NCBI GenBank assembly: GCA_964479535.1
Contig: CAYZMM010000001.1
Coordinates: forward strand, 327,902-391,901
Direction of reading: 5' to 3'
Length of the DNA stretch: 64,000 bases
Source: an uncultured Thermodesulfobacteriota bacterium
Lineage (GTDB): Bacteria > Desulfobacterota > DSWW01
Shown here in pieces: positions 50,894-64,000 of this stretch. Under the pieces are notes generated by a model, which saw nothing but the letters and a program-made list of their open reading frames with translations, was not told the DNA's origin and did no database searches. The position numbers and the translations under genes are program-made. Position 1 is the first letter of the stretch. Each line of letters opens with the position of its first letter.

Positions 50894-51978
50894 CAAGTGC
50901 CGGAGGCGGCGGCCGGAGCCTCGAGGAGATCCCTCTCGGACACGACCCTGTTGCGTCCGCTTCGCTTTGCGTGATACAGGGCCTGGTCCGCCCGTTCCAC
51001 CACGGAGTCGATCGTGTCGTCCTCGCGGACTTCCGCGACGCCGCTGCTGACGGTGATCGCGCCGATGGTGGTCTGGGTCCTCGCAACCTTCAGGGTCTTG
51101 CTGGAGACCTGCCTGCGAAGGCTCTCGGCCAGCTGGCATGCGCCCTCGCACGAAGTGGCGGGCAGCAGGATGATGAACTCCTCTCCACCGTATCGCGCCG
51201 GTACGTCTCTTCCCTTCACCGAGGCGCTGATCGTCTGGCCGAGGAACTCCAGCACGGAATCCCCCACCTTGTGCCCGTAGGTGTCGTTCACCCTCTTGAA
51301 GAAGTCGATGTCCATCATGATGACGCTGAAAGGGACGCCCTCGGCTTTGTAATGCTCATAGAAGGCCCGGAGCGCTCTGTCCAGGTATTTTCGGTTGTAC
51401 AGCCGGGTCAGCACATCCCGGATGGCCTCCCGCTCCGCCTGCTCCAGCTTCAGACGAAGCTCGTTTCCCTCCTGCTTCGCCTTCTCCAGCTGCTGCATCA
51501 GCTCCGAGTTGGAGCGCTCGACTTTTCGGGTGTCCAGAATCACCTCTTCGATCAAGGACTTGAGGGTGTCCTGGTCCATGTCGCCCCGTTCCAGACGGGC
51601 TGCGAACACGCTCAGCCGCTGGGAGTAGTCCTGGGTGACCGTCCCGGTGGCGATCAGGCCCTCCAGCGCCTCCTTGAGCATCCTGAAGGTGGCCTGGGAA
51701 ACCTCTTCGAGCAATTTCCGCTGGTTGTCTGCACCGAAGTACTTCTCATAAAGCGAACGGCTCTTCTCTTCGTCGAAGGTGCCTCCTTCGGACAGAATGC
51801 CGTCCATCTCCTCGCTCAGTTCCGGCATGCTTCCGGTTGTGTACTCGTACCAGACCTGATAATTCTCCGGCGACATGGGGATCCCTTGCCGGCTCATGGT
51901 CAGTAGGACCTTTCGAGCCACTTCCATGACGTACTCGGAACACCCTGCCCCGGTTTCACTGCCAGTAGAAGCACTCAC
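50893..51978 (-). CDS. diguanylate cyclase (GGDEF domain) with N-terminal coiled-coil region
   Basis: RYGGEEFIILLP active-site motif, FSVIMMDIDFFKRVNDTYGH, C-terminal ...ALYHAKRSGRNRVV. Confidence 0.85.
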   Translation of the reverse strand: MSASTGSETGAGCSEYVMEVARKVLLTMSRQGIPMSPENYQVWYEYTTGSMPELSEEMDGILSEGGTFDEEKSRSLYEKYFGADNQRKLLEEVSQATFRMLKEALEGLIATGTVTQDYSQRLSVFAARLERGDMDQDTLKSLIEEVILDTRKVERSNSELMQQLEKAKQEGNELRLKLEQAEREAIRDVLTRLYNRKYLDRALRAFYEHYKAEGVPFSVIMMDIDFFKRVNDTYGHKVGDSVLEFLGQTISASVKGRDVPARYGGEEFIILLPATSCEGACQLAESLRRQVSSKTLKVARTQTTIGAITVSSGVAEVREDDTIDSVVERADQALYHAKRSGRNRVVSERDLLEAPAAASGT

Positions 51979-52257
51979 TTCGTCTTCACTCCTCGAAACG
52001 GTTTTCTTCCTCCGCCTTCGGCCGGATTCATCTACTTACTCATTTCGATCGGTTCGTGAAAGTACTTTAGCCCCGGGCGCACATTTTTCCGGAAGCAAGC
52101 GCGCCGAAGACTGCGAGCGTGGGGGAGCAAGCGTCGGCCGGGCACGGGCCTCCTCGCCTTTGACAGGGTTTTTTCCTCTTCGTTAGACTCTTCCGGATGG
52201 ATCCCTGGAAGGCCTCATGCAGGTCGGGTGCTGATCCGGGGTCGGAGGGAACGGGCA

Positions 52258-53844
52258 ATGAGCCTCCTGGACGGGTCGGTCGTCGTCGCATACCTGTCCG
52301 CCATGATCGGGCTGAGCGTCTACCTGGGCAGGTCCCAGTCCAGCGAAGTGGATTACTTCGTGGGGGGGCGCAGACTGCCGTGGTGGGCCATCGGCCTGTC
52401 GACCATGGCGACCCAGACGTCCGCCATCAGCTTCATCTCCATCCCCGCCTTTGTGGCGTTGCGACCCGGCGGAGGTCTGACCTGGCTCCAGTACGAACTC
52501 GCCGTTCCGCTCTCGGTGGCCCTGGTCATGGGCTTGTTCCTTCCCTTCTTCCGGAGGCTTCAGCTGGTGAGCGTGTACGAATACCTCGAATACCGCTTCA
52601 GCCCTTCCGTGCGAACCCTGGTCAGCCTGATCTTCCTGGTGAGCCGGGGCCTCGGCACGGGCGTCGCCGTCTATGCGAGCGCCATCGTTCTGTCCGTCTG
52701 TCTCGGCCTTCCCCTCTGGACGACCATTCTGATCATCGGCATCGTTACCCTCGTCTATGACACACTCGGCGGGATCTCGGCCGTGGTCTACTCGGACGTC
52801 ATTCAGATGGTCATCCTGGTCGCCGGCATCCTGCTCTGCCTGGTCTACGCGGTGGGCGATCTCGGGGGCATCGAGGCCGCACTGCACTCCTTGCCGAAAG
52901 AACGACTTCGCGCCATCGATGTGAGCACCGGATTGGGCGACGGTGGAGCCGTACCGCTCTGGGCCTTCCTGGTCGGCGGGTTCTTTCTCTACGCCTCCTA
53001 TTACGGCACCGACCAGAGTCAGGTCCAGCGTGAATTGTCCGCCGCTACAGCGGATGAAACGAGGCTTTCCCTGATGTTCAACGGGTTTGCCCGTTTTCCC
53101 CTCACCGTCCTTTACGCGGCCCTGGGCCTCGTCGTCGGCGCCGTCTACGGCCTCTCGCCCGAGTTGCGCGCAAACATTCCCGGGGACAGACCGGACTATT
53201 TGATTCCCCAGTTCATTCTCCTTCATCTTCCCCCGGGGATACGGGCCATTCTCTTTTCGGCCATCCTCGCCTCCGCCATGTCGAGTCTGGACTCGGCCCT
53301 GAACTCCCTCTCCGCCTCCACCCTTCGAGACTTCATCAAGCCCCGTGGGAAGGACGCCCGATCGGTCCTGATCCTCAGCAAGCTCACGACGGTCGCCTGG
53401 GGAACTGTGGTCACCGCCTTCGCCTTCCTGGTCGGCCGGATATCGCCGACCGTCATCGAATCCATCAACAAGATCGGATCCGCCTTCTTCGGGCCCATCC
53501 TCGGCGCCTTTCTGGTTGGGGTGCTGTCCGTGAAGGGCACCTCGGCCGGGGTCCTCGCCGGCATCCTTGCGGGCGTGATCCTGAACCTCGCTCTCTGGTT
53601 CCTCGTCCCGGTCGTTCACTGGATGTGGTGGAACTGTTTCGGATGCCTGACGACCGTCGGCGTGGCTCTCCTGGTCAGCACCATACACCCCTCCGCCCCA
53701 GCGAAGAGGGCGCGGCATTACGTGCTCCGCGGCACGGGTCTGCTGCGGGCAGAGCGCCGCCGGCTTCCAGCCTATCTGTCGCTGGCCGTCTACTTCCTCC
53801 TGATACTCGCCTTGCTCTCCTTCTCGGGAACCTTCAACCACTGA
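52258..53844 (+). CDS. sodium:solute symporter family (SSF) transporter
   Basis: ~13 TM segments. ATG at 52258 with GGAGGG SD (ORF track starts 52228). Confidence 0.85.
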   Translation: MSLLDGSVVVAYLSAMIGLSVYLGRSQSSEVDYFVGGRRLPWWAIGLSTMATQTSAISFISIPAFVALRPGGGLTWLQYELAVPLSVALVMGLFLPFFRRLQLVSVYEYLEYRFSPSVRTLVSLIFLVSRGLGTGVAVYASAIVLSVCLGLPLWTTILIIGIVTLVYDTLGGISAVVYSDVIQMVILVAGILLCLVYAVGDLGGIEAALHSLPKERLRAIDVSTGLGDGGAVPLWAFLVGGFFLYASYYGTDQSQVQRELSAATADETRLSLMFNGFARFPLTVLYAALGLVVGAVYGLSPELRANIPGDRPDYLIPQFILLHLPPGIRAILFSAILASAMSSLDSALNSLSASTLRDFIKPRGKDARSVLILSKLTTVAWGTVVTAFAFLVGRISPTVIESINKIGSAFFGPILGAFLVGVLSVKGTSAGVLAGILAGVILNLALWFLVPVVHWMWWNCFGCLTTVGVALLVSTIHPSAPAKRARHYVLRGTGLLRAERRRLPAYLSLAVYFLLILALLSFSGTFNH

Positions 53845-53879
53845 CGCCGGCATCAAAACCGCAAGGAAAGGAGTGTCCA

Positions 53880-56800
53880 TTGTACACGGAACAGGCCGGA
53901 GACCACGAGGGCGGTGCCCTCCGCTTCGAGGGCTTGGAAATCGGGGCCGTCTCGGTCAAGTGGGTGGGCCGGGCTTCTTCGGGAACCTCCAGCATCGAAG
54001 TGGAGCGCCATGAAGGCAACCCGCGAGAGACGACGAGGAGGATCCTCGCCCGGCAGGAGGCAGGACCGTCGTCTCGCATGGTGGTCACCGGTCAGCCCGC
54101 CAGGCTCCTCATGGACCTGCCCTACCGCCCGGAAACGGAGTGCATCGAACGGGCCCTCTCCCATCACGGCCTGAAACCGGACATGCTTCTCTCCCTCGGC
54201 GGAGAGACCTTCAGCGTCTACCCGCTGAAGGAGGGAGCCGTGAGGAACGTGATCTCCACCTCCAAGTGTGCCGCCGGTACGGGGGAGTTCATCGTCCAGC
54301 AGTTTCAACGAATGGGCATGACCCTGGAGAGAGGCCTGGCAGAGGCCCGCTCCGGAAGCCTCGTACAGATGGCGACCCGATGCTCGGTCCACTGCAAGTC
54401 GGACGCCACCCATAAGCTGAACAAGGGCGAGTGCGGTCCCGGTGATATTGCTCGATCCCTGGTGAACGATCTTGCGAAGAAGGTGAGCGAACTCGTTGAA
54501 CGGACTCAGTGGCCGGTCGGTTCGATCGTGCTCTGCGGGGGGGTCTGCAGGAACGGCCTCTTCGTGGAGCGTCTGCGAGGATTCCTGCACCGGTCGGAAG
54601 TGATCATCCTCGAGGAAAGCCCCTATCTGGAGGCCTTCGGGGCCAGCCTTTTCGCCTCCGACCCCCCCCACGACCCCTCCCCGTCCTCGCCTGCCGGACG
54701 GTTCCGAACCGCCAGGCCCACCTTCTCCAGGTTGAAACCCCTGGCCGAGGCGGAACCCCTGCTCGACTTCAGGGTGGGTTCGGGGCAACGAGACGCTGTT
54801 CAAGAAGGAGGAACGTACGTCCTCGGCATCGATGCGGGGTCGACCACCACCAAGGCCGTGCTCTTCAACCGCGACGACGGCTCCATCGGTGCGAGCGCCT
54901 ATCTTCGTACCCTCGGAAACCCGGTTCGGGCAACACGGGCGTGCCTGGAGCAGCTGATCGAAGAGGTGGGCGAGGCCTCCATCGCCATGGTTCAGGCCGG
55001 CGTGACCGGTTCGGGCAGGGAACTGGTCTCTGTCTATCTCGACAACTGTCCCAGCTTCAATGAGATCCTGGCCCACGCCCGTGCCGCTGCGGAGGAGGTC
55101 GCGGATGTGGACACCGTCTTCGAGATCGGCGGCCAGGACTCCAAGTATATTTCCTTTCTCGACGGAGTCCCGGTGGACTACGCCATGAACGAAGGGTGCT
55201 CGGCCGGCACGGGGAGCTTCGTCGAGGAGTCCGCCTCTGTGGACATGGGTGTGCCCATGGAGCAGATCAGCGACATGGCCGCGGCAAGCCTGCAACCCAT
55301 CGCCTTCGGCGAGCGATGTGCCGCCTTCATCAACACCGACTTGAGGAACGCCCTGCAACAGGGGGTGCCCCGCGAGGATGTGATCGGCGGATTGGTCTAC
55401 TCGGTTGCGGACAACTACCTCTCCCGAATCGTCGGCGGGCGCCACGTAGGCGGGAACCTCCTCTTCCTCGGTGGTGTCGCCCTGAATCGTTCCGTCGCCC
55501 TCGCCATGGCGGCCCGCACCCGGAGGAGGTTGGTCGTGCCCCCTCGCCCCGAGCTCATGGGCTGTGTCGGCGTGGCTCACATGCTCCTCGACAGGCTTCG
55601 GGAACAGGAACTGCCAGAGCGACCCATGGCGCTGGCGTCCCTCCTGCAAAGCGGGATGGAGGCGAAAGAACCGTTCCGGTGCTCATCGTGCGAGAACAGC
55701 TGTGAGATCCGGCGGATCCATGTCCGTGGCAGGACGTATCCCTTCGGAGGGCTCTGCTCCAAGTATGAAATCCTGCGACATCGGGGGACCTCCGGGGAGG
55801 ACGGCAGAGACCTGGTAGCCCTCCGCAACCGCCTGATGTTCGAGGAGTACGGACCCGATGCCGCGCATACGGGTCGAGGCACCATCGGCATCCCCATGGC
55901 CCTGACCACCTACTCTCTCTTCCCCTTCTACGTGAAGCTCATCCAGGAGCTGGGCTATGAAGCGGTTCTGTCCAGGCCGTCGAAGTCGGGCGAGACGAAG
56001 CGGACCGCCTCGATCTGCTATCCCTGCGAGATCATGCACGGCGCGGTGCATGATCTGTTCGAACGCAAAGTCGGCTACGTACTGCTTCCCCATGTGATCG
56101 AGATGGACGGACCGGAGCGATCCCTTCACGACTACACGTGCCCATCCACTACCCAGATTCCGGACATCATAAGAGCCGCTTTCGACTCGACGACGGAACG
56201 TTTGCTCGCTCCCCACATGGGCCTTTCGGAGCCCCTCAGGAACACCACGGTGAAGGAGGTCGGCAGGCTTGGCCCGAGACTCGGACTGCACGAAGCGCAG
56301 GCGCGCGAAGCGGCCGAAGTGGCGCTGGCCCATTACGACCGGTTCCGGCAGGCATGCCTCGAAGAGACGCAAGAGGCCTTGAGAGGCCTCGGAGAGGAAC
56401 CGACCGTCATCCTCGCGGGCCGGCCCTATACGATCTGTTCCTCGGAGGTGAATCTCTCCCTGCCGAGGAAGATCGCCAGCAGGGGGTACCACGTCGTCTC
56501 CGCCGACATGCTGCCCCGGCTGGACGATGCATCCCCTCCGAGAGACGTCTGGCACTTCACGCAGCAGATCAGCAACGCAGTCGCCCACGTTCGGCAGAAC
56601 CGCCATCTGTATCTTTGCCTGGTCTCATGCTTCTCCTGCGGCCCGGACAGCAGCATGTACCATTTCTTTCGCCACCGGCTTGCAGGGCGAACCTTCTGCT
56701 ATCTCGAGATCGACTCCCACACCGCTCACGCCGGCTTCGAGACACGCCTCGGGGCCTTCCTGGACCTCATCGAAGAGCAGCACCGCAGGAGTGAGCGGCC

Positions 56801-58202
56801 CTCACGAACGAAGACCTCGTCGCCCCGGGCCACGGCCCCCCCTTCTCCTCCACAGGGGAGACAGGCCCGCCTTTCGGACACCCTGGATTTCATCGTGGAC
56901 GAGCGAGGCAGCCGGGTTGAGTACGATGACCCGCGCATCGTACACGTATGGACGACCCCTCACAGCCCGTACGCGCTGCGTATGATCGAAAAGGTGTACG
57001 AGACCCGCACACCCGGCTTCCGGGGTGCGGGCAGGACGCGTCCGGAAACCATGCAATATGCGAGAAGACTCTGCTCCGGCAGGGAGTGCGTGCCCATGAC
57101 GGCCACCGCAGGGGCTGCGCTGGAAGACATGGAAACCCGTCGCGGGGAGGACGAGATCACGATCTACTTCGCCCTGGATCAGGAAGGGCCCTGTCAGAAC
57201 GGGGCCTGGCCGCTCGTGTGGGAAACCATCGGAAAGAGACTCGGCCTGGGAAACGTGATCTGCGGCGTGTGGCCTTCCGCCCGGAACAACTACCTGGGGC
57301 TCGGCAACGACTACAACCTTCTCACAAACGCATGTCTGTTCCTCGGCGACATGTTCGATGAAGCGAGGAACGCACTGGCCTGCCTCGCCCCGGACAGGGC
57401 GTCTGCCCTGCAGGTCTTCGAGGAGGCCTTCGTCACCTTCCTGAAACGCTTCGGAGAGAACGGCGACAAGGCCCTCGACCCCGCCCTGGCGGAGTGGGCC
57501 GATAGGGTGTCCCGAGTTCCCCTCAAGGCAACGCCGCAACGGACCCCGAAGGTGCTCATCCTGGGCGGGTTGAACCTGCTCTTCGTTCACGACCCGGTCA
57601 CCGACTACCTCCTGGAGCAGGGCATCCTGCCGAAACTCGTCCCCTACTCGGAAAGCCTCTGCTGGCTCGCCGCGGAAACCGTCGTGCGGCACGGCTTTCG
57701 TCACGGCCTGATCACGCCCCGGGAGCAATATTCCCACAAGCCGCCCAGGGCGAGCCGGGAAGAGGCGCTCGCCTTCCGGCAGTCGCGATTCAACGTAACC
57801 CTGGTCACTTCCGTGGAAAGGCGGTTTCGAAACGTCATGGATGCGTCCGGCCTGATGTTCGACGAGCCTGTTCCCTTTCTGGAGATCGCCGAAGGGGGGC
57901 ACCCGTACGCCTCTCACATCGGGTTTACCGAAACGACGGTCACCACCGGCCGGTTCGTCTGCTCCGTCGACAGGGGCCTCTATGACGGCCTCGTGAACCT
58001 CGGATCCTTCAACTGTCAGCCTGCCATGAACGCCCAGGCCATCATCCGTCCTCTTGCAAACAGGGCGGACATGCCCTATGTGGCCCTCGACTGTGAAGGG
58101 CCCTGGCTGTCCACCAGCCAGATCAAGCTCCTCGAGGCCCTGGTCGTCCAGGCGAGAAGGAACCACAGGAGGAAGAGCCGGCCGGCACCATCGCCCGGGT
58201 AG
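53880..58202 (+). CDS. giant fusion protein: two tandem BadF/BadG/BcrA/BcrD (HgdC-type, ASKHA) activase ATPase domains + ~800-aa C-terminal DUF2229-like region with CxxCxxxC motif
   Basis: Two copies of the motifs LGIDAGSTTTK / CAAGTGEF(SF)VE / GGQD / LGG...NR. C-terminal FRCSSCENSCEI. Likely TTG start 53880 after AAAGGAG (ORF track 53625 overlaps the symporter). Confidence 0.8.
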   Translation: MYTEQAGDHEGGALRFEGLEIGAVSVKWVGRASSGTSSIEVERHEGNPRETTRRILARQEAGPSSRMVVTGQPARLLMDLPYRPETECIERALSHHGLKPDMLLSLGGETFSVYPLKEGAVRNVISTSKCAAGTGEFIVQQFQRMGMTLERGLAEARSGSLVQMATRCSVHCKSDATHKLNKGECGPGDIARSLVNDLAKKVSELVERTQWPVGSIVLCGGVCRNGLFVERLRGFLHRSEVIILEESPYLEAFGASLFASDPPHDPSPSSPAGRFRTARPTFSRLKPLAEAEPLLDFRVGSGQRDAVQEGGTYVLGIDAGSTTTKAVLFNRDDGSIGASAYLRTLGNPVRATRACLEQLIEEVGEASIAMVQAGVTGSGRELVSVYLDNCPSFNEILAHARAAAEEVADVDTVFEIGGQDSKYISFLDGVPVDYAMNEGCSAGTGSFVEESASVDMGVPMEQISDMAAASLQPIAFGERCAAFINTDLRNALQQGVPREDVIGGLVYSVADNYLSRIVGGRHVGGNLLFLGGVALNRSVALAMAARTRRRLVVPPRPELMGCVGVAHMLLDRLREQELPERPMALASLLQSGMEAKEPFRCSSCENSCEIRRIHVRGRTYPFGGLCSKYEILRHRGTSGEDGRDLVALRNRLMFEEYGPDAAHTGRGTIGIPMALTTYSLFPFYVKLIQELGYEAVLSRPSKSGETKRTASICYPCEIMHGAVHDLFERKVGYVLLPHVIEMDGPERSLHDYTCPSTTQIPDIIRAAFDSTTERLLAPHMGLSEPLRNTTVKEVGRLGPRLGLHEAQAREAAEVALAHYDRFRQACLEETQEALRGLGEEPTVILAGRPYTICSSEVNLSLPRKIASRGYHVVSADMLPRLDDASPPRDVWHFTQQISNAVAHVRQNRHLYLCLVSCFSCGPDSSMYHFFRHRLAGRTFCYLEIDSHTAHAGFETRLGAFLDLIEEQHRRSERPSRTKTSSPRATAPPSPPQGRQARLSDTLDFIVDERGSRVEYDDPRIVHVWTTPHSPYALRMIEKVYETRTPGFRGAGRTRPETMQYARRLCSGRECVPMTATAGAALEDMETRRGEDEITIYFALDQEGPCQNGAWPLVWETIGKRLGLGNVICGVWPSARNNYLGLGNDYNLLTNACLFLGDMFDEARNALACLAPDRASALQVFEEAFVTFLKRFGENGDKALDPALAEWADRVSRVPLKATPQRTPKVLILGGLNLLFVHDPVTDYLLEQGILPKLVPYSESLCWLAAETVVRHGFRHGLITPREQYSHKPPRASREEALAFRQSRFNVTLVTSVERRFRNVMDASGLMFDEPVPFLEIAEGGHPYASHIGFTETTVTTGRFVCSVDRGLYDGLVNLGSFNCQPAMNAQAIIRPLANRADMPYVALDCEGPWLSTSQIKLLEALVVQARRNHRRKSRPAPSPG

Positions 58203-58244
58203 TGCCCTGTCCCGGGACACGAAGCCGGACCCCGCATACGGATC

Positions 58245-59369
58245 TCAGCCGGCGAGCATTTCGAGGAAGGCCTGTACCCGGGTCCCGATCTGCCCCGAGC
58301 CGGCCGTACTGTATTCACGCTCCAGATCCAGCAGGGGAATCCCCTCCTCCTGCAGTCTTCCGGTGAGCATCTGGCGCCTCCCGGCCCAGTGGTCGCAGAA
58401 CTTCAAACGGGCGCATACGACACCGTCGACCTTCCAGTCCCGAATCGTTTCCCTCATGATGTCGAAGCTCATATCGAAGCTGTTGATCACAGCCGGGCAG
58501 GGTTCCCGACTCGTGTATCGCTCGGCGATCGCTCCGAAGGGGTCCTCGCAGTCCTCCTCGATCATCCCCCTGTAGTGGCGCATTCCGAAACAGAGTCCAT
58601 CGGCCACCACGCATGCGCCCCTCTCTTCGATGAAGCGGATGAATTCCGGGACATCACAGGCACCCCCCACCACCATCAGCCTCGGCCTTCCCGCGTCAAC
58701 AGGGCGACGATTTTCCAGTTCCGGGAGAATCGCCTCGAGTCGCTCGTTGAACCGTTCCCTCGGCATGGACAACCCCGCCAGCACCATTCTCATGTGCTCC
58801 GCTCCGGTCAATGCGGGCGGATCCGACCTTCGGCTTTCGTCCAGCCGGCCGAGCAGTGCGCGCGTCCCGTTGTAGACGCGAACCGAACGTTCCAGGTCCT
58901 CCTTCCGTATTCGCACCCCCATGGAACGCTCGATCGCCTCGACGAGGCCCTTTACCTCGGAGGCGAACCACTCCTTCGCAGCGTCGCTGATGGTATGATA
59001 CATGGAGAAGTAGTGAACCAGAGGGACCTTCGCCTTGTCTTTCAACTCCCCGGCGAGCCGGAGCATGTGATCGCAGGTGTTGGTCGTCACGAACCCGTCG
59101 AGGAAATCGAGATCGCCCCGCAGGACGGCCTCCAGGACGGATCGGCTGTAAGAGCAATTGAACAGGTGCAGATGGGCATCTCCCCTGGAGGTGTCCTCGA
59201 GCCTCGGGGCCCGCACCCGCAACGGAAGCAGTCCGGCCGCATGGATGATCTCTTCGGGTATGTCCGAACAGACGGTGCCGACCACACGCCCCCCACCGCT
59301 TCTCCATGTTTCGATCTCGGCGTTGGGCAGGGTCGAGGCGATCTCCTCGAAGTATTCCAGTCCCTCCAT
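58245..59369 (-). CDS. 2-hydroxyacyl-CoA dehydratase / benzoyl-CoA reductase BcrB-BadE family subunit (HgdB-like)
   Basis: Family-typical Cys-containing regions NCSYSRS..., TNTCDHM..., ARLKFCDHWAGR. ATG 59369 (ORF-track N-terminus Ser-rich junk). Confidence 0.7.
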   Translation of the reverse strand: MEGLEYFEEIASTLPNAEIETWRSGGGRVVGTVCSDIPEEIIHAAGLLPLRVRAPRLEDTSRGDAHLHLFNCSYSRSVLEAVLRGDLDFLDGFVTTNTCDHMLRLAGELKDKAKVPLVHYFSMYHTISDAAKEWFASEVKGLVEAIERSMGVRIRKEDLERSVRVYNGTRALLGRLDESRRSDPPALTGAEHMRMVLAGLSMPRERFNERLEAILPELENRRPVDAGRPRLMVVGGACDVPEFIRFIEERGACVVADGLCFGMRHYRGMIEEDCEDPFGAIAERYTSREPCPAVINSFDMSFDIMRETIRDWKVDGVVCARLKFCDHWAGRRQMLTGRLQEEGIPLLDLEREYSTAGSGQIGTRVQAFLEMLAG

Positions 59370-59379
59370 CTTCGTCTCC

Positions 59380-60684
59380 CTATGCCATAATCGTTTCAAA
59401 GAACTCTTCGATCTGGACCCGTGCCTGCTCCGGGGAGAGCACACGGCTGTCGTTGTAATCGAACTCCAGGAAGAGGACCGGCACATCCCGCTCCCGGCAA
59501 ACTTTTTCGATCATTCCCCGTGCCCCGCAGATGCTCTGGCAGCCCACGTGCTGCGTGACGAAGAGACAATCGGCTGCATAATGGTCGTAAGCCCAGAAGA
59601 ACCACTCTATGAACGTGTCCGTTTCGATCCTTTGCAGGGACATGGTCATATCGAGACCCTGCCATGCAATCCCCTCGAGCATGCCGTCCAGGCTGGATGT
59701 GTCGATGGGCTCCAGAACGGGCGGAACGGAGAGATGGGCCACCACCATGGCACCCAGATCCTGTTCCATCCACTCGAAGATCGAGGGGTCGTAGATGGTC
59801 GGGACGTGGACCCAGAGCACCCGATGTTTCTCTTCGAAGGGCCCGCCTGTGCGGCCGTCCCTGGCCCGGGAAAGGGCATCCTCACGGAAGGTGGTGAGCA
59901 CCTCGGTGACCCGTGGGCTCCCAGCCGCCTGAATGTATCGCATGAACGGCATCATTCTCAGATAGGCGGAATAGGGCATCGGCCGGAGTCGATACGTCTC
60001 ATTGATATCCAGCATGCACTCGAAGGCCCTGTTCGACTCTTCGACCGTCTCTCTCAAACGGTCGATGTCGAACCTCCTTCCCGTCGCCTCCTCCAGAAAG
60101 GGAATGAGCTGGTCTCTGAGTTGCCCGGCGTAGTACCGGACCGCATCCCTGCCGTGCCGGAAGGGGGCGTCGAGAAAGATCGCGGGGCACTCGAGAATCT
60201 CCTTCATGATCGGGTAGGCGATGCGGGTCCCGTCACAGGGGCAGGAGGATGTGGCGAAGAGTGAGTTGTTCGGAAGCTCATCGCTCAGCGCCGCCCCGAC
60301 CAGGAAGCGATCCGTGGAACAGACTTCCGGCGGAAGGCCCGCCTCTTCCGCGCTCTCCAGGAAGGCGTGCACAACGCTCTGGTCGAGGCCGGAAAAGAAG
60401 GTGGGGTAGAACTCGAGCGACAGGGGCTTGCAGCCGAAGGCGTAGAAGATCTGGGGCATCAGGCCGAACTGGATCATCGCGACCTTTCCGCTCTCATCCA
60501 CCATGGCCGCGGCCACCTCTTCGTAGTGGACCACCATGTCGTTCAGCATCAACCAGACGAGATCGCCGTAGGGCGCGAGCGCCGGGGGGGGATTCCTCTT
60601 CATTTCCTCGGCCAGCAGGGACAGGCCGTTCGTTACGTTCATGGTTCGTTCAAAGGGTGTTCCCATTTCGACATGCTCCCTCAT
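59380..60684 (-). CDS. 2-hydroxyacyl-CoA dehydratase family subunit (HgdA/BcrC-like)
   Basis: 434 aa; conserved Cys in ...TSSCPCDG..., ...HVGCQSICG...; adjacent to HgdB-like gene. Confidence 0.7.
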   Translation of the reverse strand: MREHVEMGTPFERTMNVTNGLSLLAEEMKRNPPPALAPYGDLVWLMLNDMVVHYEEVAAAMVDESGKVAMIQFGLMPQIFYAFGCKPLSLEFYPTFFSGLDQSVVHAFLESAEEAGLPPEVCSTDRFLVGAALSDELPNNSLFATSSCPCDGTRIAYPIMKEILECPAIFLDAPFRHGRDAVRYYAGQLRDQLIPFLEEATGRRFDIDRLRETVEESNRAFECMLDINETYRLRPMPYSAYLRMMPFMRYIQAAGSPRVTEVLTTFREDALSRARDGRTGGPFEEKHRVLWVHVPTIYDPSIFEWMEQDLGAMVVAHLSVPPVLEPIDTSSLDGMLEGIAWQGLDMTMSLQRIETDTFIEWFFWAYDHYAADCLFVTQHVGCQSICGARGMIEKVCRERDVPVLFLEFDYNDSRVLSPEQARVQIEEFFETIMA

Positions 60685-60780
60685 ATCATCCGTTCATTCT
60701 CCTCTTTCCGACCGCCTGTGTGCATCTCCTTCAGGGCCACGATTTCGGCAGCCCCTGAAACTGCATGAGCATGTTGCGGC

Positions 60781-62160
60781 TCATCTCGTTCGAGATGGGC
60801 GAGAACTGGATCTGCATGGCATCGCGGAGGCACCTCTGCATGGCGTACTCGTTGCAGATGCCGTATCCGCCCGGAATCTCGTCCCCGTGTGTGGTGGCGT
60901 GCAAGCGTCGAAACGGATGTGAGCGATGCCCTTCAGGGGAATGCGGAAGGAACCGAAAGGTGCCTGACCCGACAGGGTCGTCTCTCCGTCCACAAGAACA
61001 TCCACCGCCCCGCCGCCCGACAGCCTGGCGGTGGCCACGAACCGGCCGTCCTTCTGCGAAACCTCCATCCCGCTCACGCAGGCGAGTTCCACCTCCGCCC
61101 ACCCCTCTCCGACCCTGCCTGTCAGATGCGGAAGGCCCTCGATCCGGATATGCTTGATTCGAACCGTTACGCCCCGGTTGTCCCGGAGGAATCCGGAAGG
61201 GCCCTCCACCTCCCCCGATCCCGTGGCACACGGTTCGGCCCGCCTGAGCCCGGAACCGAACATCTCGGTCAGTGTCTTCATCCCCTCGTCGACCGAGCAT
61301 GACGGGTCCATCAACCGCCAGTAACCGATCCCCTCGGCCATGACCAGCTCGAGGTAGGCGAGAAGGTCGACATTCACGTCCGGCTTGACCACCCCCTCCG
61401 CGATGGCCCGTCTCAGGTCTCTCGCCATGGGGGCGGCCAGCGTTCGGAAGGCCTCCCCCCCCTTCTGCGCCATCGCGGGGTCGCGCCCCCCCAGGGCGGC
61501 ACGGAGCAGGTTCAGAATCCCGCGGAAGCCCGGAAAGGCGTTCAAGAAGGCGATGCCCCGTTTCCGAGTCCTTTCGTCGAAGTCCTTTTCGCTTCGTATC
61601 TCCGCCCAGGCCTCCTTCGGCACCATCGTGACCGTGAGCCGATCGATGCACTCCATGAACAGTTCCTTCTTGTTCTTGAAGTAGACGTAGAAGGTGCCCT
61701 TCCCCATGTGGAGGGCCTCCGTGATGTCGCTGATCTTCGTTCTCTCGTACCCCCTTTCGGAGAAGAGCTCGATTGCGGCATCCAGGATCGTCTCCCGGTT
61801 CCTGTGCCCTTGAGGGCTCGTACCGCTCCGCTCCCCCCGATGGGCGGACGACCCCGGGCCCGGAGAGACGGCACGGCCGTCCACACTGCGCTCGCAGGCT
61901 TCCTTTGGTTCAACACGATCCAGGAGTTCCCTGATGCGCGCCAGGGGAAACCCTTCTTTTTCGCGCAGCCGGCGGATCTTTCGGAGCCGGTTCAAGTGGC
62001 TCTCGTCAAACAGGTGGACGTTCAACCCCACCTGTCGGGGGCGGTGAAGCAACCCTATGTTCACGTAATGGTGAATGGTCGAGCGGGTGAGCCCCGACGC
62101 CTTCGAGAGCTGCGCGATCTTCATCCCCGGTGGAACAGGCAGCTGCTCGGCAGGTGTCAT
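60781..62160 (-). CDS. fusion transcriptional regulator: MerR-type HTH + TetR-family domain + ~110-aa C-terminal domain of unknown function
   Basis: MKIAQLSKASGLTRSTIHHYVNIGLL (MerR HTH); RETILDAAIELFSERGYERTKISDITEALHMGKGTFYVYFKNKKELF (TetR HTH) + TetR ligand domain. Start 62160 or 62124. Confidence 0.7.
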   Translation of the reverse strand: MTPAEQLPVPPGMKIAQLSKASGLTRSTIHHYVNIGLLHRPRQVGLNVHLFDESHLNRLRKIRRLREKEGFPLARIRELLDRVEPKEACERSVDGRAVSPGPGSSAHRGERSGTSPQGHRNRETILDAAIELFSERGYERTKISDITEALHMGKGTFYVYFKNKKELFMECIDRLTVTMVPKEAWAEIRSEKDFDERTRKRGIAFLNAFPGFRGILNLLRAALGGRDPAMAQKGGEAFRTLAAPMARDLRRAIAEGVVKPDVNVDLLAYLELVMAEGIGYWRLMDPSCSVDEGMKTLTEMFGSGLRRAEPCATGSGEVEGPSGFLRDNRGVTVRIKHIRIEGLPHLTGRVGEGWAEVELACVSGMEVSQKDGRFVATARLSGGGAVDVLVDGETTLSGQAPFGSFRIPLKGIAHIRFDACTPPHTGTRFRADTASATSTPCRGASAMPCRSSSRPSRTR

Positions 62161-62220
62161 CCCGGATCCCTTCCCCGCATTATATGTTGCATGATAATAC
62201 TGACGAGTCGGCACCTGAAA

Positions 62221-62250
62221 AGCATAGATTGCCCAGCCCGGCATGTCAAG
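62221..62250 (-). promoter_or_regulatory. sigma-70-type promoter TTGACA-N18-TATGCT for the MerR-TetR gene
   Basis: Revcomp of 62221..62250; 18-nt spacer; in AT-rich 62160-62330 region. Confidence 0.4.
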
Positions 62251-62448
62251 AAAAAAGCCAAGAAGCCTGAAGATGCGACAATATTCTTCCAATAGTATGT
62301 TTTTAAACGTTTTTTACGGCATGGTCGTTGCGAGGCGACTTCCCGGGTTATGGCAATTTGTTAGACGATAATACCCATTGGTCGGTTATTGCCGAGGAGA
62401 ACAGACGAGACGCTTATCCATTCGACGTCGAGTTGCAGCGACGCTGGG

Positions 62449-64000
62449 TCACGCAAGCTCCCGTTTCAGCAGGCCCAGGGCCACGAGGAAGAACACCCAG
62501 GGCGCAAGGAATGCGAAGAGGCCTCGAACGGGCCCCTGTACGGGGATCGTGCCGCAATTGTCCTGGCCGTTCCCATTGCTGTCGATGTCATCATCGTCCC
62601 ATTCCGCGGAACCGCCGTCGAAACCGTCACAGTCCCAGTCCGTTTCGTCGTCAAAGGGGTCGCCCGCGCCCGGATGAACGAGGGGGTCCTGGTCATCACA
62701 GTCGTGTGTGCGCATCACGCCGTCCCCGTCCTCGTCCTGGCAATCGTCCCCCACGCCGTCCAGATCTTCATCGACCTGTGCGGTGTTCGCGTGCCGGGGA
62801 CAGTTGTCGGATTCGTCCGCCACCCCGTCCCCGTCCGTGTCGCCCTCTGCGGGCGGTCCCATGGAATAGAGTCTTCCGCCCAGGGGGCCCAGATCTCCGA
62901 CAGCCACGAAACGATCGCGGTAGACGATCGGGGCGGCGACGGCACGGTGCCGCTCGCCGAAGCCGGCCTCGTTCACGCGGCTCCACCGGTCCTCGTGGAG
63001 TCTCCAGACCTCGCCTCCCGTGAAGGGGTTGGTCGTACAGATGTACAGGTCTTCCTCGTAGACGACCCCGGAATGATACGTAACCGCCTGTGTGTTGCGC
63101 ATCGGAATGCCTGCGAAAAGGACCGGTCCCCAGACCGCTCCGTCGTAACGCCACAACTCCGCGCCCGTGTACACGTTCTCTGTGCCCACATAGAGAAAGC
63201 CGCCGTGGGAGATCATCATCAGGGCGTTTCGATTGAAGACGTTCGACGCCCCCAGCCCGAAGCCGTCCGCGTTGACCTGTCTCCACGAGGATTTCATGCG
63301 GGAGAGAGGGGCCCCCTCCGAGCGCCAGATCTCGGTCCCGGTTCCTACCCGCAGGGTATCGTAGAAGTAACCGTTTTCGGTGCCCACGTAGAGGGCTCCC
63401 TCGTGGACGGCCATGGTCGTCGCGTCGGAATTGAACAGATCCAGGAACCCGACCGGGCTGACCCTGGACCAGGTGTATCCGTCGGCGCTTCTCCAGACCC
63501 CGCAGGGCGGATTGAGGATCGGAACGCCCTGTGTGAAGACGCCCGCGTACAGCTCATCCTCGAAGGTCGTCATCGATGTAACGGCAAACCCGTGAAAGGA
63601 GTTCTCGTCCACCCTTTCCCAGTCCTCGAGGACCAGCGGGTGCTCTGCCTCCCGGCGTGTCCTCCAGAGTTGCGCCCCTGTGTGGCGGTTCCAGGTGCCC
63701 ACGTAGAGCCGATCCTGAAACACATGCATGCCTGCAACGCTGAAATTCTGCCACCCGAGACCGTCACCGGTCTCGTATCCCGTGGGGCACGCCTCGTGCC
63801 ACTTCCAAACCCCGTCCTCCTCCTGGATGCACAGCACCTGAAGCCCGCCCGGCACCGGTGGCTCCGCCTCCAGGTTGCGCACCCGCTGGGTCCCCGCATA
63901 CAGGCGCCCGTGATACTCGACCATGGAGACGACGAGGAACTTCTCCTTTTCCCACGCTTCTCCCATGTGGATCGGATCGAATCCCGCATTCGCCTGGTCG
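62449..64000 (-). CDS. beta-propeller repeat protein with thrombospondin type 3 (Ca-binding) repeats and C-terminal hydrophobic anchor/sorting signal; N-terminus beyond window
   Basis: Six repeats with (R/E)LY(V/A)GT...W..(D/E)G..W core; DTDGDGVADESDNCPRHANTAQVDEDLDGVGDDCQDEDGDGV TSP3 repeats; C-terminus NCGTIPVQGPVRGLFAFLAPWVFFLVALGLLKRELA. Frame open to 64000. Confidence 0.7.
   Translation of the reverse strand, partial: DQANAGFDPIHMGEAWEKEKFLVVSMVEYHGRLYAGTQRVRNLEAEPPVPGGLQVLCIQEEDGVWKWHEACPTGYETGDGLGWQNFSVAGMHVFQDRLYVGTWNRHTGAQLWRTRREAEHPLVLEDWERVDENSFHGFAVTSMTTFEDELYAGVFTQGVPILNPPCGVWRSADGYTWSRVSPVGFLDLFNSDATTMAVHEGALYVGTENGYFYDTLRVGTGTEIWRSEGAPLSRMKSSWRQVNADGFGLGASNVFNRNALMMISHGGFLYVGTENVYTGAELWRYDGAVWGPVLFAGIPMRNTQAVTYHSGVVYEEDLYICTTNPFTGGEVWRLHEDRWSRVNEAGFGERHRAVAAPIVYRDRFVAVGDLGPLGGRLYSMGPPAEGDTDGDGVADESDNCPRHANTAQVDEDLDGVGDDCQDEDGDGVMRTHDCDDQDPLVHPGAGDPFDDETDWDCDGFDGGSAEWDDDDIDSNGNGQDNCGTIPVQGPVRGLFAFLAPWVFFLVALGLLKRELA

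Follow-up and report, generated by a model that had tools for sequence, protein, structure and literature searches.

The plsA-plsR genes of Clostridium perfringens encode an anaerobic plasmalogen synthase, a finding of Jackson et al. (2021) that we cite as recounted in later papers (PMC9702350, PMC12838417, PMC8788747). In many bacteria, one gene of 4.2–4.9 kb encodes both Pls parts, and its product carries the domains Act1, Act2, Red1 and Red2 (PMC12838417). Sahonero-Canavesi et al. (2022) reported that a "modified PlsA" (Ger) from Thermotoga maritima and Desulfatibacillum alkenivorans produced 1-O-alkyl glycerol ethers in anoxic Escherichia coli; Ger was described as two PF01869 domains, PF09989 and a variable C-terminal part (PMC13159169). 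The activities of PlsA/PlsR and of Ger were both shown by heterologous expression (PMC13159169, PMC12838417, PMC9702350), and all tested members of this architecture make ether lipids (PMC13159169, PMC12838417). Here, we analyzed a 64-kb stretch of DNA from an uncultured Thermodesulfobacteriota bacterium (hereafter, the window) that encodes a giant protein of this architecture between a sodium:solute symporter gene and two convergent genes for proteins related to 2-hydroxyacyl-coenzyme A (CoA) dehydratases (HGD-D proteins). A preliminary description of the interval 52258–60684 had joined these genes into a single three-part dehydratase/reductase system and had called fused double-activase proteins functionally uncharacterized. 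That last statement is overtaken by the work on plasmalogen synthase and Ger, which have the same architecture (PMC13159169, PMC12838417, PMC9702350). We favor, with a probability of about 60%, a reading in which the region comprises three independent units: a Ger/Pls-type ether-lipid enzyme, a symporter, and an operon of a MerR-TetR regulator with two HGD-D genes.

All four genes of the interval lay where the preliminary description had placed them, were intact, and had been assigned to the right families (SSF, HgdC/BcrAD-type, DUF2229 and HGD-D) according to Pfam and NCBIfam. The giant protein was indeed 1440 amino acids (aa) long, and database protein P0001 has the same length and sequence. 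Pfam and NCBIfam identified two BcrAD_BadFG stretches (TIGR00241, 189 bits), followed by DUF2229 (PF09989) at aa 668–878, which matched over the full profile length (E 6.6e-43); the last ~560 aa gave no Pfam match. A tblastn search of a plasmid collection led to a single 1475-aa gene of Listeria monocytogenes (WP_014600632.1) with the same Pfam architecture. (The sequence that carries it, NZ_LR134399.1, is labeled as a plasmid and resembles a chromosome segment.) BLASTP aligned the giant protein with the Listeria protein colinearly over aa 18–974, with 26% identity (E 2e-83), and did not detect the C-terminal module. A Red2 profile built from the window's clade and more distant homologues did match aa 1009–1401 of the Listeria protein (domain E 2.4e-24; hhalign 98.8%, E 1.3e-16). 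Intermediate homologues aligned at full length with both proteins, at 31–36% identity over ~1450 aa with the window protein and at 24–26% over ~1400–1500 aa with the Listeria protein. Judged by its sequence, the giant protein belongs over its full length to the PlsA/PlsR-Ger family: it has two N-terminal BcrAD_BadFG domains, a later DUF2229 domain, a PlsR-like C-terminal module, colinearity with the Listeria protein and the conserved cysteine sets. Its clade lies far from the validated enzymes.

The proposal of two complete activase domains held for Act2, which is canonical, whereas Act1 is divergent and, searched alone, matched Pfam over its C-terminal half only (E 1.6e-9). The phosphate-1 motif reads EGLEIGAVSVKW in Act1 versus GIDAGSTTTKA in Act2. 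The degenerate form, EG[L/I]EIGAVSVKW (aa 16–28; 53880–53960), in which Asp is replaced by Glu or Asn and GST by GAV, occurs throughout the window's clade, unlike the canonical Act1 motif of the Listeria protein. A degenerate Act1 beside a canonical Act2 suggests an asymmetric ATPase pair. Both domains match the two conserved cysteines of HadI, within the motifs KCAAGTG/GCSAGTG and TRCS/ERCA: C130 and C168 of Act1 align with these two HadI cysteines (KCAAGTG and STC), and in Act2, C440 corresponds to HgdC C127 and C480 to the second conserved cysteine. In the HgdC structure 1HUX, C127 and C166 are the ligands of the bridging [4Fe-4S] cluster.

The CxxCxxxC motif that had been assigned to the DUF2229-like region was present (C601, C604 and C608, plus C626), but it sits in the linker ahead of DUF2229, outside the domain. 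All four linker cysteines are kept in the Listeria protein, as are C713, C754 and C920 of Red1 and C1070, C1105 and C1379 of Red2. In 2-hydroxyacyl-CoA dehydratases, a cluster usually has three cysteine ligands, as in the HadBC structure. The conservation of cysteines suited to iron-sulfur clusters thus holds at the level of sequence, and from it we infer the cluster content.

Structure modeling pointed to the nature of the C-terminal 850 aa. Red2 modeled alone had a predicted local distance difference test score (pLDDT) of 91.7, and fold comparison gave scores of 11.3 for HadC, 11.2 for BzdN, 11.1 for MbdN and 10.1 for DCCP. The model of Red1 and Red2 together scored above that of Red2 alone, with different identities to the same chains (16% versus 11% for HadC). 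Because of the higher score and the different identity, the best alignments of the two-module model probably lie on Red1, in which case both modules have the fold of catalytic subunits of the 2-hydroxyacyl-CoA dehydratase/benzoyl-CoA reductase (HAD/BCR) superfamily. Two such modules with conserved cysteines give the giant protein its own catalytic core. The Red2 profile also matched the Red1 region of the Listeria protein weakly (E 5e-4), which would fit an internal duplication comparable to the superfamily's alpha/beta pairs. The relationship of the Red modules to the HGD superfamily was visible only by structure or with the broader Red2 profile: hhalign with shallow, clade-only profiles gave no signal for Red1 against Red2 or for either against the HGDa family, and BLASTP found no similarity between the C-terminal parts of the giant protein and the neighboring HGD-D proteins. 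The low-confidence linker between the modules (aa 975–1005) coincides with the split point of two-gene homologues, which have a gene for 960–1000 aa and a separate gene for ~470 aa.

We compared the gene neighborhood at 86 loci, namely six look-up loci and the best 80 of 551 genome matches, each with up to 10 kb of flanking sequence. The matches listed by the genome scan all came from MAGs (metagenome-assembled genomes), with no T. maritima, D. alkenivorans or C. perfringens sequence among them. tblastn searches with the symporter, both HGD-D proteins and the regulator gave matches at a single locus (L001), that of a relative whose giant protein is 82% identical; there, the symporter gene, the giant gene and the convergent HGD-D operon are arranged as in the window. 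At the other ~80 homologue loci, the HGD-D pair and the symporter were absent within 10 kb. Two further orthologues, one from a Thermodesulfobacteriota MAG (72% identity) and one with 74% identity, keep the downstream synteny of a MopE/TSP3-like gene, an HDOD histidine kinase gene and two GT4 genes, and the 72% orthologue also keeps the upstream genes for a sigma-54 regulator, a histidine kinase, a TPR protein and a GGDEF protein. Neither locus contains the symporter or the HGD-D genes. Since the 82% relative alone shares these neighbors and the 72–74% orthologues have the same flanks without them, the trio is not a conserved system; the symporter and the HGD-D pair are lineage-specific neighbors, not conserved partners. 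All five genes of the region are under purifying selection, with ratios of nonsynonymous to synonymous substitution (dN/dS) of 0.10–0.21 relative to the 82% relative; hence none is a pseudogene, a possibility that the preliminary description had named as one that would overturn it.

The symporter was recognized by PF00474 (E 9e-41) and TIGR00813 (217.7 bits versus a cut-off of 184), and it scored far below the cut-offs of all substrate-specific SSF equivalogs in NCBIfam (PutP, PanF, ActP and MctC). Its stop codon precedes the start of the giant gene on the same strand by 35 nt, not 36 nt as first counted, and the TTG at 53880 is preceded by a GGAAAGGAG Shine-Dalgarno sequence. This arrangement fits co-transcription, which is probable; it does not demonstrate the translational coupling that had been claimed. 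The symporter gene is a recent insertion upstream of the giant gene, to which a functional link is unsupported. At the L. monocytogenes locus (L090, 2348–8416), an amino acid permease gene lies directly upstream of the pls-like gene on the same strand, so the window is not alone in having a transporter gene beside this enzyme, and the proximity may be coincidental.

Several surroundings and relationships of homologues speak for a lipid substrate in this clade. A homologue with 54% identity, from a Dissulfuribacterales MAG, is the final gene of an operon that also encodes two ketoacyl synthases, FabH, a ketoreductase, FabA/Ape-type dehydratases, a phosphopantetheinyl transferase and a PlsC-type acyltransferase. 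Seven Promethearchaeota loci (L013, L016, L023, L025, L026, L030 and L042; 57–60% identity across the PlsA-like portion) have, just upstream and in most cases directly adjacent, a gene for a 560-aa tandem PlsC-type acyltransferase with two PF01553 domains (e.g., L030, 7492–9967). The window protein is 50–60% identical to the Promethearchaeota proteins and has a full-length match with 51% identity in the anammox bacterium Scalindua japonica. Kuenenia, an anammox bacterium with non-plasmalogen ether lipids, is listed with a modified plsA (PMC8788747), and Ger homologues are described in Lokiarchaeota, including Ca. Prometheoarchaeum (PMC13159169). Separately, we observed at the Promethearchaeota loci a HAD-family phosphatase gene shortly before the split plsA-like gene, ~1.4 kb of additional sequence between the plsA-like and plsR-like open reading frames (ORFs), a glycyl-radical enzyme (PFL-like) gene in five loci and a paralogue with DUF2229 only in six.

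The alternative that survives best is that the window's clade has the PlsA/Ger architecture but acts on another carbonyl substrate, such as an acyl-CoA, a wax ester or another ester. We consider it unlikely, although several observations lean its way: the identity to the firmicute Pls-like protein is only 26%, the degenerate Act1 motif is specific to the clade, and genes for acyl-CoA dehydrogenase, old yellow enzyme (OYE) and enoyl-CoA hydratase recur near homologues. We know of no validated member of the window's clade. Against this alternative stand the conservation of every cysteine set with the Listeria protein, the co-oriented genes for PlsC-type acyltransferases or for fatty-acid synthesis that adjoin clade members, and the absence of CoA-ligase and CoA-transferase genes among the genes immediately adjoining in the window, an absence already recorded in the preliminary description. 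A lipid substrate requires neither of these enzymes, which would explain why the genes are absent. Moreover, every tested member of the architecture makes ether lipids (PMC13159169, PMC12838417).

Several points nonetheless count against assigning an ether-lipid enzyme here. No lipid genes occur near most homologue loci, and the recurrence of acyl-CoA dehydrogenase (~9 loci), OYE (~7 loci) and enoyl-CoA hydratase (3–5 loci) genes could mean acyl-CoA chemistry. Being close relatives of one another, the seven Asgard loci amount to approximately one observation. The low Listeria identity and the degenerate Act1 nucleotide motif weigh on this side as well. Listeria is among the carriers of pls orthologues (PMC9702350); by its architecture, the gene that we used is probably one of them. 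The comparison with the validated proteins of T. maritima (AGL49404), D. alkenivorans (SHJ90043), C. perfringens (Q8XL48/Q8XL47) and E. faecalis (Q835P9) was by description only. Finally, PlsA and Ger are indistinguishable by sequence (PMC13274423). A domain heuristic from the same source associates two activation domains with one DUF2229 with alkyl rather than vinyl ethers, and on this heuristic the Ger type would be likelier for the window protein than the plasmalogen type.

For the Ger/Pls-type enzyme that we favor, the following mechanism can be proposed, its cluster content, electron path, lipid substrate and product being drawn from family biochemistry. Act1 and Act2 would form an intramolecular pseudo-dimer bridging a [4Fe-4S] cluster via C130/C168 and C440/C480. 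A low-potential donor encoded elsewhere would reduce this cluster, and ATP hydrolysis would lower its potential, probably mainly at the canonical Act2 site, since the Act1 motif is degenerate. The electron would then pass through the four-Cys linker cluster into the clusters of the Red1/Red2 pseudo-heterodimer. There, a membrane glycerolipid would be reduced at its sn-1 ester carbonyl in two one-electron steps with protonation via radical intermediates, and dehydration would yield the vinyl ether; this follows the chemistry proposed for PlsA/PlsR, two one-electron reductions with protonation and then dehydration to the vinyl ether, in the form recounted in PMC8788747. A Ger-type enzyme would continue from the vinyl ether to the saturated alkyl ether.

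The convergent pair was correctly described as HgdB-like and HgdA-like. The two genes encode different HGD-D subunits in tandem, matching PF06050 with E 4e-88 (HgdB-like, 375 aa) and E 1e-55 (HgdA-like). The orthologues of the HgdA-like protein begin with MGTPFERTM, which places its start probably at 60666. The closest matches of the beta-like subunit are BzdN (E 3e-38), MbdN and HadC, and the alpha-like subunit is only distantly related to MbdO (E 3e-6) and BzdO (E 1e-5). The pair reached no curated equivalog, with 190.6 bits versus 350 for DCCP (the best), 134 versus 453.8 for BzdN and 141 versus 700 for HadC; in NCBIfam, neither the other proteins of the region nor the neighboring genes in relatives reached one. 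The alpha-like family is small (156 proteins at E ≤ 1e-5 in a word-index search), and its invariant cysteines 71, 108, 136 and 368 (P0121 numbering) are present in the window protein. Three more distant genomes were examined. An Abyssobacteria MAG and a Desulfobacterales MAG each have the pair behind a complete set of four genes, two for HGD-D proteins and two for stand-alone BcrAD-type ATPases; a MerR-TetR regulator and an acyl-CoA dehydrogenase are also encoded at the Desulfobacterales locus. In the third, a Hydrogenedentota genome, the pair stands alone. No cognate ATPase or activator gene for the pair was found in the 64-kb window, whereas such genes are present beside homologues in L088 and L089. 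The four-gene BCR/HAD-like sets at these loci (L088, 328–4544; L089, 3481–7604) reach no Bzd, Bcr or Had equivalog score; possibly, two catalytic modules share one ATPase module there.

The regulator of ~440 aa fuses a MerR-type helix-turn-helix with a TetR_N helix-turn-helix, a combination that is also encoded with the pair in L001 and L089. Within the 5' end of the regulator's long ORF are two promoter-like sites, and we therefore place its true start downstream of 62292. Control of the giant gene by this regulator, as by the TetR-type regulator of E. faecalis pls, was considered and rejected: the regulator travels with the HGD-D pair. Between regulator and pair, the 82% relative has five extra genes spanning 5.4 kb (L001, 8216–13700), which encode an OYE, a thiolase, a DUF35/zf-ChsH2 protein, an acyl-CoA dehydrogenase and an Amidohydro_2 protein, where the window has ~100–140 nt (60666–60781). 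This difference suggests a deletion or an insertion between close relatives.

The pair belongs to an uncharacterized small BCR/HAD subfamily. Most economically, it is read as the catalytic module of an acyl-CoA reductase or dehydratase, with the gene for the ATPase partner most likely lying elsewhere in the genome. The regulator and the two HGD-D genes would then form an operon for the catalytic heterodimer of a BzdNO/HadBC-like enzyme, probably acting on an acyl-CoA. The alternative that the operon is a decaying, non-functional remnant, left without an ATPase partner after the loss of five pathway genes, would account for the five-gene difference from the 82% relative and for the giant protein being the sole activase in the window. 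It is improbable in view of the two intact ORFs with dN/dS of 0.10–0.11 versus the relative, the presence of the family-invariant cysteines, and the Hydrogenedentota genome in which the pair is likewise alone.

There is also a slim chance that Act1-Act2 reduces the orphan pair in trans, as one ATP-driven electron injector for two catalytic cores, or that the clade's chemistry is other than glycerolipid ether formation. Trans activation would draw on adjacency in close relatives as its sole support; another chemistry is conceivable because of the 26% identity to the firmicute Pls-like protein, the degenerate Act1 site and the sharing of the clade with Asgard archaea. Very improbable, lastly, is the arrangement first proposed, in which a small organic or amino-acid-derived acid enters through the symporter and the giant protein activates the HgdA/HgdB-like pair as radical dehydratase/reductase: it can appeal to genes adjacent in the window and the 82% relative, to the short same-strand spacing of symporter and giant gene, and to a pair without its own activase gene in the window, but this adjacency is limited to the closest relatives, the giant protein already has HAD/BCR-fold modules with conserved cysteines, the pair is convergent and has its own MerR-TetR regulator, and distant homologues of the pair adjoin stand-alone BcrAD-type ATPases, with no giant gene in their 10-kb flanks according to Pfam gene lists.

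The features of the region are compiled in Table 1. The G+C content of the window is 61–65%, and third-position GC picks one reading frame per gene. A sigma-70 consensus scan of the region returned nine sites versus 2.0 expected. Rfam found no riboswitch or other RNA over 51800–62600, a repeat search gave chance-level matches alone and no mobile-element ends, and no activase-like ORF other than the giant gene was found across the 64-kb window. Upstream, positions 36–46091 hold a long flagellar cluster, nearly all on the minus strand (FliD, FlgK, FlhA, FlgE, FliI, FliH, FliG and FliF), preceded by GT9-like, GT1-like/DUF3880 and methyltransferase genes that resemble a flagellin-glycosylation set and followed by genes for a sigma-54 response regulator, a PAS histidine kinase, a TPR protein and a GGDEF protein. 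Downstream, a minus-strand gene at 62449–63966 encodes a protein of 505 aa in which thrombospondin type-3 motifs and MopE-like Cu-binding motifs occur; it adjoins the giant gene in the 72–74% orthologues too (69–71% identity) and marks the ancestral downstream neighbor.

Table 1. Positions of genes, protein domains and a promoter-like site in the region of the giant gene (window coordinates).
Feature	Position	Strand	Remarks
SSF-family sodium:solute symporter	52258..53844	+	PF00474, TIGR00813
PlsA/PlsR-Ger-type fusion protein, 1440 aa, Act1-Act2-FeS linker-Red1-Red2	53880..58202	+	TTG start
Act1, aa 1-300, divergent HgdC/BcrAD-type ASKHA domain	53880..54779	+	degenerate phosphate-1 motif EGLEIGAVSVKW
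Act2, aa 306-580, canonical HgdC/HadI-like ATPase domain	54795..55619	+	GIDAGSTTTKA
Four-Cys linker C601-x2-C604-x3-C608 ... C626, candidate [4Fe-4S] site	55674..55763	+	
Red1, aa ~640-975, includes DUF2229; HAD/BCR catalytic-subunit-like fold (predicted)	55797..56804	+	
Pro/Ser/Arg-rich flexible linker, aa 975-1005	56802..56894	+	pLDDT <50 at aa 975-991
Red2, aa 994-1440 as modeled, PlsR-like module; HAD/BCR beta-subunit-like fold (predicted)	56859..58199	+	
HGD-D protein, BzdN/HadC-like (beta-type), 375 aa, in separate convergent operon	58245..59372	-	PF06050
HGD-D protein, BzdO/MbdO-like (alpha-type), probably 428 aa	59380..60666	-	ORF open to 60684
MerR_1 + TetR_N fused regulator, first gene of HGD-D operon	60781..62100	-	ORF open to 62292; start approximate
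Sigma-70-like promoter match TTGACA-18-TAGACT, 5' of symporter	52160..52189	+	consensus scan, weak evidence

If the assignment is true, a Thermodesulfobacteriota-like organism converts ester lipids into ether lipids anaerobically, which would add one more candidate bacterial source of ether lipids. Such sources bear on the "lipid divide" debate and on sediment lipid biomarkers, and the window protein falls into the same clade as Asgard-archaeal homologues already discussed in the literature. An annotation habit is also corrected: proteins named "acyl-CoA dehydratase activase" that carry DUF2229 are complete enzymes and not orphan activators.

Compared with known systems, the HGD-D pair has its nearest solved structures in the class I benzoyl-CoA reductases BzdNOPQ and MbdONQP, and in two other genomes it adjoins a complete four-gene set of this type; it lies far below the Bzd/Bcr cut-offs, however, and no ATPase subunits are encoded near it. 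HgdAB and HadBC resemble the pair in the strong PF06050 match, but the pair remains below the HadB/HadC equivalog cut-offs and has no adjacent activator. DCCP/DCCP-R is set apart by an HGD-D score below the 350-bit cut-off and by the homodimeric DCCP, as against two different subunits here. The giant protein shares with HadBC-HadI and HgdAB-HgdC the alignment of its ATPase domains, including the two cysteines, and the predicted HadB/HadC fold of Red1 and Red2, but those systems have separate activators and use CoA esters, whereas the giant protein fuses four parts and presumably acts on a lipid. Closer are PlsA/PlsR (C. perfringens CPE1194/1195) and single-gene PlsA (E. faecalis, L. cremoris, B. 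longum and the L. monocytogenes orthologue), with full-length colinearity with the Listeria protein and three cysteines per Red module; the differences from the Listeria protein are the 26% identity, a Red2 seen by profiles only, and a canonical Act1 in place of the degenerate one in the window's clade. Ger, compared by description, differs in its reported BBDHDDH/BBDHDHDH patterns, as Pfam gives no HGD-D fragments in the C-terminus of the giant protein. Otherwise, Ger (Tmari_0479, AGL49404; SHJ90043), like the giant protein, is a single polypeptide of roughly 1400 aa or more with two BcrAD_BadFG domains, DUF2229 and a further reductase/dehydratase-like C-terminus (PMC13159169), occurs in anaerobes including sulfate reducers, and needs no CoA-activating partner.

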